Both the position numbers and the translations under genes were made by a program. 28,241 nt of DNA from a virus (taxonomy: Duplodnaviria > Heunggongvirae > Uroviricota > Caudoviricetes), in IMG/VR virus record IMGVR_UViG_2541047953_000002; one strand, written 5' to 3'. This document shows positions 3,465 through 23,850 of the stretch, one piece after another (the stretch's first letter is position 1; the number at the start of each line of letters is the position of its first letter). Below the pieces are notes generated by a model. It made no database searches. It was not told the DNA's origin and saw only the letters and a program-made list of their open reading frames with translations.

Positions 3465-4889
3465 CTACACAATGGTCGGGTCAATCCCGCCAGTATCCCA
3501 GCAGATACGGGATATCGACATTTCTGCACCATTCCGGCGGGTATAGGTTTTATTGATGGCCTCATCCACACGCAGCAGCGTCTGTTCATCGTCGTGGCGG
3601 CCCATAATAATCTGCCGATCAATCAGCCAGCTTTCCTCACCCGGCCCCCATCCCCATACGCGCATTTCGTAGCGGTCCAGTTGGGAGTCGATACCGGCGG
3701 TCAGGTAAGCCACACGGTCAGGAACGGGCGCTGAATAATGCTCTTTCCGCTCTGCCATCACTTCAGCATCCGGACGTTCACCGATTTTCGCTTCCCACGT
3801 CTCACCGAGCGTGGTGTTCACGAAGGTTTTACGTTTTCCCGTATCCCCTTTCGTCTTCATCCAGTCTTTGACAATCTGCACCCAGGTGGTGAACGGACTG
3901 TACGCCGTCCAGATGTGAAAGGTCACACTGTCAGGCGGTTCAATCTCTTCACCGGATGACGAAAACCAGAGAATGCCATCACGGGTCCAGATCCCGGTCT
4001 TTTCGCAGATATAACGGGCATCAGTAAAGTCCAGCTCCTGCTGACGGATGACGCAGGCGTTATGCTCACAGAGATAAAACACGCTGGAGGGGTCATCCGG
4101 CATCCATTTGAGGCCAAACGGCGTCTCTTTGTCGCCAAATTTAAGGTACTGCTCCTCCCCGCAGTGCGGGCAGGCAACATGAAAACGCATAAAATGCGGG
4201 GATTCACTGGCTGCACGCTCAATCTGGCAGGTGCCTCTCACTTTGGGCGTGGAGCCACGGATGGACTTTGGCCAGACCGAGCCTTCAATACGTTTGTCGC
4301 CAAGGAACGTCGGAGAGCCTTCCTGTTCAATATCCTCATCAAAGGCAGCAAGTTCATCATAACCCGCCACATCCACCGACTTTTCACGGTAGTTTTTTGC
4401 CGCTTTACCGCCCAGGCACCAGAAGCCACGACCATTGGTGAAACGCTTCATAGTGAGCGTGTTATCCCGGTGCTTTTTGCCATACCACGGAGCCAGCGCC
4501 AGCAGCGACGGAATATCGCGGATGGTCGGCTCAACGTGGGTTTTCATAAAGTTCTCGGCATCACCATCCGTCGGCAACCAGATAAGTGTGTTGCGCTGCT
4601 TATGCTCTATAAAGTAGGCATAAACACCCAGCAGCATTTTGGAATAACCGACACGGGCAGACTTCACCACATTCACCTCACGGATGTAGTCGCTGCCCAT
4701 CGCATTCATGATGGCCCGCTGAAAGGGCAGTGTTTCCCAGCGCCCTTCCTGGTATGCGGATTCTTTCGGGAGATAGTAATTAGCATCCGCCCATTCAACG
4801 GCGGTCTGTGGCTCCGGCCTGAACAGTGAGCGAAGCCCGGCGCGGACAAAATGCCGCAGCCTGTTAACCTGACTGTTCGATATATTCAC
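3465..4889 (-). CDS. Terminase large subunit, lambda gpA homologue, C-terminally truncated (474 of ~641 aa) at a deletion junction
   Basis: Protein matches lambda gpA from [14 protein letters not shown] through ...GGIDPTIV as recalled, then stops; lambda continues YERSKK. Confidence 0.9.
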
Positions 4890-12297: not shown

Positions 12298-13063
12298 TTA
12301 CGCCAGTACGCCAATTGCCAGCGCGCGATCGATAAAACGAAATATCAGCTCCAGTTGGGAGCCATACTTATCTTCAAATGCCACTGTATCCGTATGCAGC
12401 TCGTTGTGATGCTTTCTGCACAAAGGCAACACAAAGAGATCATGTGCTTTTGTTCCCATTCCGCCCTGCCCGTGACCAATCAGATGATGCGGATCGTCGG
12501 CTGGCATACCGCAGCAAGCACACGGCTGTGTCTTAACCCAACGTGTGTATTTCTCCTTAACCCAGCGGCGACGTTTAGGCAGCTTCATGAAAGATTCCGG
12601 AGACTCTGGATCAACGGTGATGCTTACCACCGTCTTTTCCTGTGGTGATTTTTGTTGCTGGTGGGCGTAAGGCAACGGTGCAAGATTTTTTGTGCGTTGT
12701 TTCAATATGCTGGTGGCGGTCTGCTCTCCCGGTACGATGTCGCTTTCGCGGTACACCGAGCAGATTTTTTCCGCTGGTAATCCCAGCAAACGACGCGATA
12801 CAGCCTCAGGTAGTGCATCCACCACCTGATTGCAGACCGCCCACCAGGATAATTCAGCCAAAGATAATTCCCGCTCCTGCGTACCGCTTATTGCGTGACG
12901 GATGACGTCAATCACCCATGCTGTCAGATTTTGTTGAGCAAGCAGCTCCAGTGATTCCGATGTCTGGTCACGCAGTTGGTTGTCGCAGTGCCAGCACAAC
13001 ACCATTGCGCCGGTACCATAACGGTGAATGACTGTTTCAGTGTGATGGTAATCGCCATTAGGC
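12298..13063 (-). pseudogene. ydfU: ydfU (DUF968, HNH-motif protein) C-terminal 255 codons, separated from its 5' part by an IS66-family insertion
   Basis: HNH-like motif CACCGMPADDPHHL...HH; frame and length reconstruct a 349-aa gene once the IS and one duplication copy are removed. Confidence 0.8.
13056..13063. repeat. 8-bp target-site duplication CATTAGGC (left copy) of the IS66-family element
   Basis: Identical 8-mer at 15596-15603 directly abutting the other IS end. Confidence 0.8.
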
Positions 13064-13148
13064 GTAAGCGTAAACTGACCGCCGTATGTAGCCATCAGAC
13101 GAGAATTGGTAACTTAGACGCCCATCTGATATAGACGGACATCTAAGT

Positions 13149-13574
13149 ATGGAATTACAGGACTGGCGAAAAGAACCTCGTAAAAACTATTCGAATGAAT
13201 TCAAACTTCGTATGGTGGAACTGGCATCACAACCTGGAGCTTGTGTTGCACAGATTGCACGTGAAAATGGCGTCAATGATAATGTTATTTTCAAATGGCT
13301 CAGGCTCTGGCAGAACGAAGGGCGTGTTTCGCGGCGTCTTCCGGTAACGACCTCTTCTGACACTGGCGTTGAATTATTACCTGTAGAAATAACGCCGGAT
13401 GAGCAGAAAGAACCTGTGGCGGCCATTGCGCCGTCTTTATCCACTTCCACTCAGACCAGAGTCAGTGCCAGTTCCTGCAAGGTGGAATTCCGTCACGGTA
13501 ACATGACGCTGGAAAATCCATCGCCAGAGCTGCTCACAGTGTTGATCCGTGAACTGACCGGGAGGGGAAGATGA
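13149..13574 (+). CDS. IS66-family accessory protein TnpA (HTH, 141 aa)
   Basis: ORF track; first gene of the IS66 triad; 4-nt overlap with tnpB. Confidence 0.85.
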   Translation: MELQDWRKEPRKNYSNEFKLRMVELASQPGACVAQIARENGVNDNVIFKWLRLWQNEGRVSRRLPVTTSSDTGVELLPVEITPDEQKEPVAAIAPSLSTSTQTRVSASSCKVEFRHGNMTLENPSPELLTVLIRELTGRGR

Positions 13575-13921
13575 TCTCACTCCCATCAGGTACCCGTATC
13601 TGGCTCGTTGCCGGCGTTACCGATATGCGTAAATCCTTCAACGGACTGGGAGAACAGGTACAACATGTGCTGAATGATAATCCCTTCTCCGGTCACCTGT
13701 TTATCTTCCGTGGCCGACGGGGTGACACCGTCAAAATTCTTTGGGCTGATGCTGATGGTCTGTGCCTGTTCACCAAACGCCTGGAGGAAGGCCAGTTTAT
13801 CTGGCCTGCGGTACGTGACGGCAAGGTATCCATTACCCGCTCGCAACTGGCAATGCTCCTCGATAAGCTGGACTGGCGCCAGCCAAAAACATCCAGCCGT
13901 AACTCACTGACAATGTTGTAA
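13571..13921 (+). CDS. IS66-family TnpB (116 aa)
   Basis: Characteristic N-terminus PSGTRIWLVAGVTDMRKSFNGL. Confidence 0.9.
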   Translation: MISLPSGTRIWLVAGVTDMRKSFNGLGEQVQHVLNDNPFSGHLFIFRGRRGDTVKILWADADGLCLFTKRLEEGQFIWPAVRDGKVSITRSQLAMLLDKLDWRQPKTSSRNSLTML

Positions 13922-13951
13922 AAAACTCCTGACCGCATTATAAAAACGGTC

Positions 13952-15565
13952 ATGAGTCAGAAATACCTCATTCGCATCGCAGAGCTGGAAAGGTTGCTCT
14001 CTGAGCAGGCTGAAGCCCTCCGTCAGAAAGACCAGCAACTGAGTCTGGTTGAAGAGACGGAAGCCTTCCTGCGCTCTGCACTGACACGTGCCGAAGAAAA
14101 GATCGAAGAAGATGAACGGGAAATAGAACATCTGCGGGCTCAGATAGAAAAACTGCGCCGGATGCTGTTCGGTACCCGTTCTGAAAAACTGCGTCGTGAA
14201 GTTGAACTGGCTGAGGCTCTGCTGAAACAACGTGAACAGGACAGCGATCGTTACAGTGGGCGGGAAGACGATCCTCAGGTTCCCCGCCAGTTGCGACAGT
14301 CGCGCCATCGTCGTCCGTTACCGGCACACCTTCCCCGTGAAATACACCGCCTGGAGCCAGAAGAAAGCTGTTGCCCGGAGTGTGGCGGTGAGCTGGATTA
14401 TCTGGGGGAAGTCAGCGCTGAACAGCTGGAACTGGTGAGCAGTGCCCTGAAAGTGATCCGCACAGAACGGGTAAAAAAAGCCTGTACAAAATGTGACTGT
14501 ATTGTTGAAGCACCGGCGCCGTCCCGCCCGATAGAGCGTGGTATCGCGGGCCCCGGATTACTTGCCCGCGTGTTAACGGGAAAATACTGCGAACATCTGC
14601 CACTGTATCGTCAGAGTGAAATCTTTGCCCGCCAGGGTGTCGAACTGAGCCGGGCCTTACTCTCCAACTGGGTTGACGCGTGCTGCCAGTTAATGACACC
14701 GGTGAATGATGCCCTGTACCGTTATGTAATGAACACCCGCAAGGTTCACACTGATGACACACCGGTAAAGGTACTGGCACCGGGTCAGAAAAAGGCGAAA
14801 ACAGGGCGTATCTGGACGTATGTCCGGGATGATCGCAATGTGGGTTCGTCATCTCCTCCAGCGGTCTGGTTCGCGTACTCGCCGAACCGGCAGGGGAAAC
14901 ACCCGGAGCAACACCTCCGCCCCTTCCGGGGTATCCTGCAGGCGGATGCGTTCACAGGTTACGACAGGTTGTTCAGTGCAGAACGTGAAGGTGGTGCACT
15001 GACAGAAGTTGCGTGCTGGGCCCATGCCCGGCGAAAAATCCACGATGTATACATCAGCAGCAAAAGTGCGACGGCAGAAGAAGCCCTGAAGCGAATCAGT
15101 GAACTGTACGCCATCGAGGATGAAATACGGGGATTACCGGAGTCAGAGCGTCTTGCCGTCAGGCAGCAGCGAAGCAAAGTGTTACTGACGTCGCTGCATG
15201 AATGGATGGTGGAGAAGAATGGTACGCTGTCGAAAAAATCCAGACTGGGCGAAGCGTTCAGCTATGTACTGAATCAGTGGGATGCCCTCTGTTATTACAG
15301 TGATGACGGTCTGGCGGAGGCGGATAATAATGCTGCGGAAAGAGCGCTTCGTGCAGTCTGTCTCGGAAAGAAAAACTTTATGTTCTTTGGCAGCGATCAC
15401 GGCGGCGAGCGTGGAGCACTGTTGTACGGGCTGATCGGCACCTGCCGTCTGAACGGTATCGATCCGGAAGCGTATCTGCGCCATATCCTGAGCGTACTGC
15501 CGGAATGGCCTTCCAACCGAGTTGACGAACTCCTGCCATGGAACGTAGTACTCACCAATAAATAA
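13952..15565 (+). CDS. IS66-family transposase TnpC (537 aa)
   Basis: N-terminal coiled coil, CxxC...CxxC zinc finger, and conserved CWAHARRK / NNAAERALR motifs. Confidence 0.9.
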   Translation: MSQKYLIRIAELERLLSEQAEALRQKDQQLSLVEETEAFLRSALTRAEEKIEEDEREIEHLRAQIEKLRRMLFGTRSEKLRREVELAEALLKQREQDSDRYSGREDDPQVPRQLRQSRHRRPLPAHLPREIHRLEPEESCCPECGGELDYLGEVSAEQLELVSSALKVIRTERVKKACTKCDCIVEAPAPSRPIERGIAGPGLLARVLTGKYCEHLPLYRQSEIFARQGVELSRALLSNWVDACCQLMTPVNDALYRYVMNTRKVHTDDTPVKVLAPGQKKAKTGRIWTYVRDDRNVGSSSPPAVWFAYSPNRQGKHPEQHLRPFRGILQADAFTGYDRLFSAEREGGALTEVACWAHARRKIHDVYISSKSATAEEALKRISELYAIEDEIRGLPESERLAVRQQRSKVLLTSLHEWMVEKNGTLSKKSRLGEAFSYVLNQWDALCYYSDDGLAEADNNAAERALRAVCLGKKNFMFFGSDHGGERGALLYGLIGTCRLNGIDPEAYLRHILSVLPEWPSNRVDELLPWNVVLTNK

Positions 15566-15595
15566 GCGTCAATACGGTGCTCCGTTGACGCTTAC

Positions 15596-15603
15596 CATTA
15601 GGC
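15596..15603. repeat. 8-bp target-site duplication CATTAGGC (right copy)
   Basis: Matches 13056-13063. Confidence 0.8.
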
Positions 15604-15887
15604 CACTGGCAGGATGTAACATGACGTAATAGCCAGTCGGACAATGCGCCAACGCCGCCAGCAGCACGAATCACCCGTTCGTTACTAAAAAACGGCAGCA
15701 ATGTTTTGTCTTCCGCCAGCGGCTGGCGAACGGCAGGAACGACTCCGGATGGCAGATTACGCATGCTTTTTGGTTCCGGTTCCACCAGCACTCGAGGATT
15801 ATGAAATATCTGTATGGATTCACGGCCCGGCTTAAGGACCACCAGCCCAAGCTCAGGCACCAGAACAGGTCTAAGTAATACCCGCAC
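15596..15887 (-). pseudogene. ydfU: ydfU N-terminal 97 codons (GTG start at 15887 with GGAGG Shine-Dalgarno)
   Basis: Same frame as the C-terminal fragment after removing IS plus one duplication (2540 bp); ORF track 15552..15926 reads into the IS. Confidence 0.75.
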
Positions 15888-15888
15888 G

Positions 15889-16167
15889 TTACCTCCAGAT
15901 CCGTTGCTGGAAAGTGCGGGACGCACGTGGTGGGCGTTCGGAATAAGGCAGCCTGACAGAGATTATCCAGTGCCGATAGTCGAGACTGAGAGCTTTCTTA
16001 ACCTCGAACCCGCGCCTGCGGTAAGAATGAATCAGCCATTCGGCCTGTTCTGCAGTGCATGGAGGGTGCTGGAACCATTCAGACTTGAATGCGTGAGAAT
16101 ACCGCCCGTGCGTGCAGGCAAGAACGGGCGAATTATCAGAATTGTAATATTTTGCGTTGCGTGCCAT
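15889..16167 (-). CDS. Hypothetical prophage protein (92 aa, Trp/Arg-rich), apparently translationally coupled to ydfU
   Basis: ORF track; ATG with GGAGA at ~6 nt; stop lies 1 nt before the ydfU GTG start. Confidence 0.5.
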   Translation of the reverse strand: MARNAKYYNSDNSPVLACTHGRYSHAFKSEWFQHPPCTAEQAEWLIHSYRRRGFEVKKALSLDYRHWIISVRLPYSERPPRASRTFQQRIWR

Positions 16168-18756: not shown

Positions 18757-20070
18757 TCAATCTTTTTTATCGGGATCAGGCTTCTTTTTAGGTAACTTCG
18801 GGGGCTTAACTTGCTGATGACTTTGCGTTCGGCGCGTAAGCCAGGGATGGTCAGCTTTAGGTTTAACATAGTATTTTGAGCGTAAATCAATACGGGCATT
18901 ATCCACTCGTTCATGGACACTCTTTTCATCATCCAGTGGTATAGGCTCCGGGCCATCAACATACTTTTCCCAGCCCAGCGCTTTCCCGTCATACAGAACG
19001 TTAATTTCACCGTCAAAGTTCTCGCATACAGTAACAACCGAATGCCTAAGTCGATATCCCCGGCCCTCACTGCGTACCTGAAACGCACTGCTTTTGTACT
19101 GGAAAGTGAGATTTTTAGACAGAACGCGCTTCGCCTGTAGGCTGAAGATATAACCCAGTTCCTCTTCAGAATGGTGCACATCAAGATGAGCATTATCAGT
19201 AGTACGAGGCGACGTAGCGAACCGGTTGTTATAGGCTTCAATAAAGGTCGGCAACCATGCATTTGCTGTTTCAATATCACTGATATTCTGAAGCCGCATT
19301 TCTTTGACCAGCCTGTCCTGTAGTGTCTGATTGGCGCGCTCTACCCGCCCTTTTGCCTGCGGGCTGTTGGCATGGATTGGCTCGATGCCCAGTGTCTTTA
19401 TCGCACGAGTGAACTGGGTCAGCTCACCTTCCCGCTCTGGGTTATTTACCCTGAATATACTGTGTCTATCAGAGTAGAGAGCGAGCGGTACGCCATGATC
19501 ATTAAGGTAACCCCGGAGGGTTTCCATGTAAGCCCGGGTTGTTTCAGCAGGCACAAAACGCAACGCCATCAACGCACTGGTGGCATCATCAATGAAAACG
19601 ATCAGTGTACATCTGGGGCCTCGATTTTCAAACCAGTCATGAGGTGAGCCATCAATCTGGATCAGTTCACCGTAAGATGGTCGTCGCATGCGGCGTTGAT
19701 ATATACGGGCAATTTTACGACGGCGTTCACGCCATAACCCCTCTTCTATCATCCACTTTCTGAGAGTTTCAACGGATAAAGATAAACCGTGTATCTCGCG
19801 CAATTTTTCGCACGCAAACGTAGGTCCAAAATCAGCGTAACGGCCTTTGAGGAGTGAAATTACTGTTGCTCTGAATTCAGTAGAAAAGGAATTATTAGGA
19901 CGCTTTCCACGTCGGTGGGAAACCAGACCAGAAGGCCCTTCATTTCTATACCGTTGCACCAGACGTTTAACCTGCCGAATAGAAATGCCAATGCGTGCCG
20001 CAGCTTGTTCCTGAATAATCTGAAGTCGGTGGAGTTCCTTATGACTCATCGTAACAGTCTCTTTGATCAT
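18757..20070 (-). CDS. DDE-type transposase/integrase (rve-like catalytic core, 437 aa); family and element ends unresolved
   Basis: N-terminal HTH, candidate catalytic D-D-E (DGSPHDWF ... DRHSIF ... RVERAN) and a Lys/Pro-rich tail; a 7-bp hairpin overlaps the ribosome-binding site. Confidence 0.8.
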   Translation of the reverse strand: MIKETVTMSHKELHRLQIIQEQAAARIGISIRQVKRLVQRYRNEGPSGLVSHRRGKRPNNSFSTEFRATVISLLKGRYADFGPTFACEKLREIHGLSLSVETLRKWMIEEGLWRERRRKIARIYQRRMRRPSYGELIQIDGSPHDWFENRGPRCTLIVFIDDATSALMALRFVPAETTRAYMETLRGYLNDHGVPLALYSDRHSIFRVNNPEREGELTQFTRAIKTLGIEPIHANSPQAKGRVERANQTLQDRLVKEMRLQNISDIETANAWLPTFIEAYNNRFATSPRTTDNAHLDVHHSEEELGYIFSLQAKRVLSKNLTFQYKSSAFQVRSEGRGYRLRHSVVTVCENFDGEINVLYDGKALGWEKYVDGPEPIPLDDEKSVHERVDNARIDLRSKYYVKPKADHPWLTRRTQSHQQVKPPKLPKKKPDPDKKD

Positions 20071-20637: not shown

Positions 20638-20646
20638 GGACATATA
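20638..20646. repeat. 9-bp target-site duplication GGACATATA (left copy) of IS1
   Basis: Identical 9-mer at 21415-21423. Confidence 0.85.
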
Positions 20647-20701
20647 GGTAATGGTGCCAACTTACTGATTTAGTGTATGATGGTGTTTTTGAGGTGCTCC
20701 C

Positions 20702-20977
20702 GTGGCTTCCATCTCCATCAGTTGTCCCTCCTGCTCAGCTACTGAAGGCGTGGTGCGTAACGGTAAAAGTACTGCCGGACATCAGCGCTATCTCTGCTCT
20801 CACTGCCGTAAAACATGGCAGCTACAGTTCACTTACACCGCCTCTCAGCCCGGTACACACCAGAAAATTATTGATATGGCCATGAATGGCGTCGGATGTC
20901 GCGCCAGTGCACGCATTATGGGCGTTGGCCTCAACACGATTTTACGACACTTAAAAAACTCAGGCCGCAGTCGGTAA
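20702..20977 (+). CDS. insA: IS1 InsA (91 aa)
   Basis: ORF track; matches IS1 InsA as recalled. Confidence 0.95.
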
Positions 20978-21399
20978 ACTCACGCATACAACCGGGCAGT
21001 GACGTCATTGTTTGCGCGGAAATGGACGAACAGTGGGGTTACGTCGGCGCTAAATCACGCCAGCGCTGGTTGTTTTACGCGTATGACAGGATACGGAGGA
21101 CGGTTGTGGCGCATGTATTCGGTGAACGCACGTTGGCCACGCTGGAGCGTCTTCTGAGCCTGCTGTCGGCCTTTGAGGTCGTGGTATGGATGACGGATGG
21201 CTGGCCGCTGTATGAATCACGCCTGAAGGGAGAACTGCACGTTATCAGCAAGCGATATACGCAGCGCATTGAGCGGCATAACCTGAATCTGAGGCAGCAT
21301 CTGGCAAGGCTGGGCAGGAAGTCACTGTCGTTCTCAAAATCGGTGGAGCTGCATGACAAAGTCATCGGGCATTATCTGAACATAAAACACTATCAGTAA
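20896..21399 (+). CDS. insB: IS1 InsB reading frame (expressed as InsAB' fusion by -1 frameshift)
   Basis: ORF track; matches IS1 InsB as recalled. Confidence 0.9.
20953..20959 (+). promoter_or_regulatory. IS1 programmed -1 frameshift slippery motif AAAAAAC
   Basis: A6C run at the insA/insB overlap (established IS1 mechanism). Confidence 0.7.
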
Positions 21400-21414
21400 G
21401 TTGGAGTCATTACC

Positions 21415-21423
21415 GGACATATA
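21415..21423. repeat. 9-bp target-site duplication GGACATATA (right copy) of IS1
   Basis: Matches 20638-20646. Confidence 0.85.
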
Positions 21424-23554: not shown

Positions 23555-23661
23555 GTCATTGGCCCAGGCAGTCCAGTTATCCGGCGTTAATTGTTAACTG
23601 GTTAACGTCACCTGGAGGCACCAGGCACTGCATCACAAAATTCATTGTTGAGGACGCGATA

Positions 23662-23850
23662 ATGAAAACGTTATTACCAAACGTTAATACGTCTGAAGGT
23701 TGTTTTGAAATTGGTGTCACTATCAGTAACCCAGTATTTACTGAAGATGCCATTAACAAGAGAAAACAAGAACGGGAGCTATTAAATAAAATATGCATTG
23801 TTTCAATGCTGGCTCGTTTACGTCTGATGCCAAAAGGATGTGCACAATGA
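23662..23850 (+). CDS. dicB: Cell-division inhibitor DicB (62 aa)
   Basis: ATG with GAGGA at ~8 nt; sequence and length match DicB as recalled. Confidence 0.8.
   Translation: MKTLLPNVNTSEGCFEIGVTISNPVFTEDAINKRKQERELLNKICIVSMLARLRLMPKGCAQ

Follow-up and report, generated by a model that had tools for sequence, protein, structure and literature searches.

The window, a stretch of 28,241 nucleotides, is a Qin-type defective lambdoid prophage. Its gene order is ydfJ, pinQ, a truncated terminase gene, nohA, cold-shock genes, lysis genes, ydfT/quuQ and ydfU, followed by a 92-amino-acid ORF, rem, hokD, relEB, ydfV, flxA, further insertion sequences, an exonuclease gene, and the excisionase and integrase genes. 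The ydfU gene is located in the nin-like region of Qin, 13 nt upstream of the Q antiterminator gene ydfT/quuQ and on the same strand. The synteny is that found in K-12 C600, where the 92-amino-acid ORF and rem lie upstream of ydfU and ydfT/quuQ lies downstream. In the window, ydfU is split by an insertion sequence, and the region contains the following features.

12298 to 13063, minus strand: 3′ fragment of ydfU (gene nt 285–1050, with the stop codon), which holds the whole DUF968/His-Me-finger region.
13056 to 13063, no strand: left copy of the 8-bp target-site duplication, CATTAGGC, an octamer of which intact ydfU has a single copy.
13064 to 15595, plus strand: 2532-bp element, very probably a complete ISEc23 (IS66 family), 100% identical to annotated copies and sharing its ends with other copies.
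13064 to 13087, plus strand: left terminal inverted repeat (IRL), GTAAGCGTAAACTGACCGCCGTAT, which agrees with the right end, taken as its reverse complement, at 18 of 24 positions.
13149 to 13574, plus strand: tnpA, 141 amino acids, helix-turn-helix accessory protein (PF01527 HTH_Tnp_1, E = 5e-12).
13571 to 13921, plus strand: tnpB, 116 amino acids, IS66 Orf2-like accessory protein (PF05717 TnpB_IS66, E = 1e-36).
13952 to 15565, plus strand: tnpC, 537 amino acids, DDE transposase (PF13007, PF13005, PF03050 and PF13817).
15572 to 15595, minus strand: right terminal inverted repeat (IRR), reading GTAAGCGTCAACGGAGCACCGTAT on the minus strand, from the scripted comparison of the ends.
15596 to 15603, no strand: right copy of the 8-bp target-site duplication, CATTAGGC, identical to the left copy.
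15596 to 15887, minus strand: 5′ fragment of ydfU (gene nt 1–292) with the GTG start at 15887–15885, from the reconstruction.

A scripted check of the window placed the element at 13064–15595 and recovered all that the initial annotation had described of its anatomy, namely a length of 2532 bp, inverted repeats with GTAAGCGT at their start, and perfect flanking repeats of 8 bp. Members of the IS66 family have imperfect terminal inverted repeats of about 20–30 bp that begin with 5′-GTAA. Those of the window element are likewise imperfect, with the first eight bases perfectly matched and 18/24 matching overall. When both strands of the 28,241-nt window were scanned, the octamer CATTAGGC was found in two copies only. 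The bases immediately outside the two octamers differ from each other and the direct repeat is therefore exactly 8 bp long. With the element ends fixed, the probability of an accidental 8/8 match between flanking octamers is 4^-8, or ~1.5e-5. A search of the same 28,241 nt found no further copies or fragments of ISEc23.

The three ORFs carried by the element are all on the plus strand, in the order tnpA-tnpB-tnpC, and the start of tnpB overlaps the stop of tnpA at ATGA. The gene content had been claimed before and was borne out by Pfam and NCBIfam matches for all three proteins. TnpA scored 83 bits against NF047595 (IS66-like TnpA; cut-off, 74), TnpB 120.9 bits against NF033819 (cut-off, 50), and TnpC 452 bits against NF033517, transpos_IS66 (cut-off, 180). 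The Pfam domains of TnpC comprise a leucine-zipper, a zinc-finger, a catalytic and a C-terminal domain; the match to PF03050 (DDE_Tnp_IS66) had an E value of 9e-98 and covered profile positions 1–283 of 284. The TnpC translation includes the motif CWAHARRK, which is said to be typical of the IS66 family.

The 2532-bp sequence was used as the query in a megablast search of 5426 complete RefSeq E. coli genomes. Many full-length copies with 100% identity were found on chromosomes and plasmids, and RefSeq labels them "IS66-like element ISEc23 family transposase", together with tnpA and tnpB. Copies that span 80% or more of the query are present in 2489 of the 5426 genomes, and ISEc23 often occurs in several copies, the median being three places per genome. 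The identical copies occupy different sites, and every copy has a duplication of its own. In viral contigs, the ISEc23 left end was located at 54 loci. Among the copies located in unrelated flanks (those viral loci plus two RefSeq loci), 14 are complete, at 2532–2533 bp, and about 17 other ISEc23-type copies, including two to three with internal deletions, carry their own 8-bp direct repeats. Since the end bases of these copies in unrelated flanks are the same as those in the window, the ends of the element are fixed independently of the ydfU locus. ISfinder treats elements with at least 95% nucleotide identity to a reference element as isoforms. The element is very probably a standard ISEc23, a name taken from the RefSeq/PGAP labels of the identical copies. 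The assignment to the IS66 family made in the initial annotation agrees with both the protein matches and this full-length identity to RefSeq-annotated ISEc23. ISEc23 is already catalogued, is mentioned in 25 publications and is common in E. coli, and the element itself is nothing new.

The identity of the interrupted gene was examined by in silico excision. Deletion of 13064–15603 (the element and one repeat) produced a continuous minus-strand ORF. Its GTG start at 15887 is preceded by GGAGG at a distance of 5 nt, and from this start the ORF spans 1050 nt, or 349 codons plus the stop, which reproduces the in-frame reconstruction, GTG start and Shine-Dalgarno sequence previously claimed. The longest possible ORF has 362 codons and starts at an upstream in-frame GTG at 15926. 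The RefSeq annotation of ydfU is 1050 nt long and lies directly upstream of ydfT, in agreement with the start at 15887. The empty site rebuilt in this way, 1200 nt in length, shares 99.9% identity with loci that bear the annotation "ydfU: DUF968 domain-containing protein" in the K-12 derivatives C600, J53 and ER1709 and in many other strains. A single base, giving S187L, differs between the reconstructed gene and ydfU of K-12 C600, and the proposal that the split gene is ydfU was thus upheld. The initial annotation had also named the finding that would speak against a true duplication, an intact ydfU without CATTAGGC at this position. The intact gene of K-12 C600 reads GGTAATCGCCATTAGGCCACTGGCAGG and has a single CATTAGGC at the insertion position, and the duplication thus stood up to this check. 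The duplication occupies ydfU gene nt 285–292, within codons 95–98. In the reconstructed protein, PF06147 (DUF968) matches residues 160–346 with an E value of 2e-76, and an HNH-like match is marginal. DUF968/YdfU has been placed in group 7 of the His-Me finger (HNH-like) nuclease superfamily, members of which typically adjoin RusA and Q genes in prophages (PMC5714182).

Taken together, these results indicated that a full-length, canonical ISEc23 almost certainly transposed into ydfU at codons 95–98, in the orientation opposite to that of ydfU. From what is known of the family, the DDE transposase TnpC, aided by TnpA and TnpB, would have cut the target CATTAGGC with an 8-bp stagger, and repair of the gaps would then have duplicated the octamer CATTAGGC.

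The distribution of the insertion was assessed through its junctions. A left junction identical to that of the window was absent from the 5426 complete E. coli genomes, and exact scans for the 34-nt junction GGTAATCGCCATTAGGCGTAAGCGTAAACTGACC returned no match in GTDB representative genomes or in JGI metagenome contigs. For draft assemblies of close relatives, coverage was solely through an exact-protein index, where the 265-amino-acid IS-ydfU chimeric protein is on record for one contig only (GCA_000461535.1, KE702490.1). That contig includes the sequence of the window region without any difference and is therefore the source. A near-identical ydfU region (at least 99%) is carried by at least 1230 of the 5426 complete genomes. 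Neither a frameshift nor a stop codon was found in the ydfU fragments, which are undecayed. Because the collections searched yielded the junction from the source alone, the repeats are perfect and the gene halves have not decayed, the insertion appears to be private to the source strain and the transposition was probably recent. The recent insertion that had been suggested earlier fits these observations and the identity of the element to other copies, which allow no dating.

Three other ISEc23 insertions were found nearby in homologous prophage modules, in the same orientation as in the window. In AVS0528, the element is inserted in a paralogous DUF968 gene, 9 bp from the window site, with the duplication GATAATCG. 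In the GN04xxx clone it lies about 360 bp away, in a small upstream ORF, with the duplication AGAGTAAG, and in the viral contig L029 it lies in rem. Orientation was examined with two synthetic queries, the ydfU 3′ flank joined to one IS end each, that were compared with the 5426 genomes. The same orientation was found in seven genomes (about four independent events) and the opposite one in two genomes. Inclusion of the window and L029 brings the ratio to about 6:2 (binomial p = 0.29). Per kb, about 9 of some 9100 DUF968 loci are occupied, which is comparable in order of magnitude to the genome-wide density of about three copies per 5 Mb. Both a local hotspot and an orientation bias were rejected on these figures. 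At the level of the target sequence, 51 distinct left flanks showed 74% A/T at duplication positions -7 to -3 versus 50% at -20 to -9 (Fisher p = 7e-11), and 64% G/C at the two outer duplication positions (p = 0.007). ISEc23 appears to have a weak target preference, S-WWWWW-N-S, that is, G/C, five A/T-rich bases, N and G/C within its 8-bp duplication, and CATTAGGC fits it.

Three other explanations of the locus were considered. The insertion could be an old one, inherited in a lineage with little representation in the collections searched, so that it looks recent without being so. A single assembly carries the junction and draft genomes were sampled indirectly, by the exact-protein look-up. 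The identity of the IS copies does not help to decide, because gene conversion or repeated re-acquisition can keep them identical and 100% identity is not a clock. Nonetheless, the junction is missing from all 5426 complete genomes despite the near-identical ydfU regions present in at least 1230 of them. Furthermore, over its 1050 nt the interrupted gene departs from K-12 at one base, with no frameshift or stop, and the direct repeats are perfect. An old insertion is therefore regarded as fairly unlikely.

It is also conceivable that no insertion exists at this position, and that a repeated IS was wrongly placed into ydfU during assembly. The source is a draft scaffold, ISEc23 is commonly multi-copy, and repeats are a classic cause of misjoins. 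However, a misjoin would not yield an exact 8-bp duplication of the target that, once removed, leaves the reading frame restored to the exact base, and both junctions are at the canonical element ends known from other copies, which makes an artefact very improbable. The remaining explanation is that the IS did not transpose here and was brought in by homologous recombination or gene conversion from a prophage allele of a DUF968 gene that already contained it. Lambdoid prophages recombine often and ISEc23 insertions are known in paralogous DUF968 genes, the one in AVS0528 being only 9 bp away. Yet the AVS0528 duplication is a different one, its flanks are 85% identical to those of the window, and the window has K-12-type ydfU (99.9%) on both sides of the element. 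No donor with the CATTAGGC junction was found in complete E. coli genomes, GTDB representatives or JGI metagenomes, and recombination has a negligible probability of accounting for the locus. Transposition of ISEc23 directly into ydfU is thus the preferred reading, and no result spoke against this structure of the locus.

The insertion inactivates ydfU. The reading frame of the interrupted 5′ fragment continues into the IS, where it stops after 111 codons, leaving an N-terminal product, and the C-terminal 254 codons of ydfU are cut off from their start. Less transcription probably, or at least plausibly, reaches quuQ/ydfT as a result of polarity. In a consensus scan of the element, no site resembling a terminator turned up on the strand of ydfU (minus), a result that favors polarity neither way. 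The insertion also creates a chimeric ORF of 265 codons at 12298–13095 on the minus strand. Its ATG is inside the left end of the IS and it keeps the entire DUF968/His-Me-finger domain. No outward promoter into ydfU was found at the IS left end, and the four promoter-like sites of the element do not exceed the 2.3 +/- 1.5 expected from shuffled sequences. Two readings are put forward as tentative and rather doubtful, namely that ISEc23 has a weak target preference and that a nuclease truncated at its N terminus could be made from the chimeric ORF if transcription leaves or crosses the IS. The character of the locus would be the same under either.

The gene that was knocked out is a putative His-Me finger nuclease gene, and expression of the Qin antiterminator may drop. 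Since Qin was already defective, the insertion is most likely selectively neutral. The locus is a clean case of a cryptic prophage gene decaying through an IS, and its significance is slight. It also illustrates that an IS, its target duplication and the restored gene can be recognized correctly in the bare sequence, with no database searches. The insertion provides the lineage of GCA_000461535.1 with a strain-specific marker.

The founding and best-studied members of the IS66 family are IS66, of about 2.55 kb, and IS679, of about 2.7 kb. IS679 reportedly needs all three of its ORFs for transposition. IS66, from an Agrobacterium Ti plasmid, and IS679, from a plasmid of E. coli B171, are other members of the family than ISEc23, and they were likened to the window element by family features. 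The features in common are the three ORFs, a DDE TnpC with leucine-zipper and zinc-finger domains, terminal repeats beginning with GTAA, and the 8-bp duplication, which has been reported for IS66 (PMC6778807). The ydfU of the K-12 Qin prophage has the same length, start and neighbors as the reconstructed gene; the window copy differs in being interrupted, and no full-length YdfU can be made from it. ISEc23 itself has the same tnpA-tnpB-tnpC layout, ends and 8-bp duplication as the window element, with no difference within the element. The insertion, too, followed the standard mode of the IS66 family, and its target is a known y-gene of K-12. Compared with the ISEc23 copies known from the collections searched, only the insertion site, at codons 95–98 of ydfU, is new.

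Insertion of ISEc23 in the minus-strand ydfU generated an open reading frame that spans the junction between the element and the 3′ fragment of the gene:
12298-13095, minus strand, chimeric ORF of 265 codons.
The left end of ISEc23 supplies the ATG and the first 11 codons of this ORF, which then continues in frame with YdfU residues 96-349, a stretch that contains the entire DUF968 domain. Inside ISEc23, the sequence upstream of the chimeric ORF showed no promoter-like site.

Independent ISEc23 insertions were identified in the homologous DUF968-to-rem segment of other lambdoid prophages, at three of the other loci bearing the element:
L001, 4131-6662, ISEc23 insertion;
L002, 4493-7024, ISEc23 insertion;
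L029, around 4627, ISEc23 insertion.
One of the three lies only 9 bp from the position of the ydfU insertion in the window. Hotspot and orientation bias of ISEc23 in the DUF968-to-rem segment were tested with synthetic flank-plus-IS-end queries against 5426 complete E. coli genomes, and nothing significant was found. Comparison of 51 distinct ISEc23 left flanks, taken from L001, L002 and L007-L060, showed a weak target-site preference inside the 8-bp duplication: the outer positions were 64% G/C, and positions 2-6 were 74% A/T versus a 50% background (p = 7e-11). Some loci carry ISEc23 derivatives with internal deletions that kept both ends, namely L017 (256 bp), L055 (1539 bp) and L020 (1383 bp). 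Perfect 8-bp duplications are present on both sides of the derivatives in L017 (ACCATCAC) and L055 (CATGCCAG). The three derivatives could be MITE-like non-autonomous elements or the products of deletions that occurred after insertion.

Two segments found in related prophages are absent from the window. At 3466-3468, between the invertase gene pinQ and a truncated terminase gene, the window lacks about 1.46 kb that strain WP2-S18-ESBL-08 has; this stretch carries tfaQ, a gene for tail-fibre assembly, and another gene for a tail protein. A second gap, of about 3.1 kb, lies at 23578-23579 when the window is compared with strain SW071611; in that strain the segment carries a hypothetical gene, a ydaT-like gene, dicC, dicA, ydfA, ydfB, ydfC and the dicF region. 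The genes dicB (about 23662-23850), ydfD and an exonuclease gene were kept. Since this segment is absent, the dicB operon lacks its repressor and promoter region with the division inhibitor gene still present.

The window also includes other transposable element sequences:
18757-20070, minus strand, intact 437-aa ISNCY-family transposase ORF (NF033594, 456 bits);
20647-21414, IS1, 768 bp, with InsA and InsB ORFs and 23-bp inverted repeats;
20638-20646 and 21415-21423, perfect 9-bp IS1 target duplication GGACATATA.
The ISNCY-family transposase ORF and the K-12 'gene' ydfW (49 aa) have a common stop codon, and therefore ydfW is simply the C-terminal end of that ORF. RefSeq labels 100% identical DNA as a 'partial' transposase plus ydfW. 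As for IS1, the copy in strain SW071611 lies in the same prophage but at another position.
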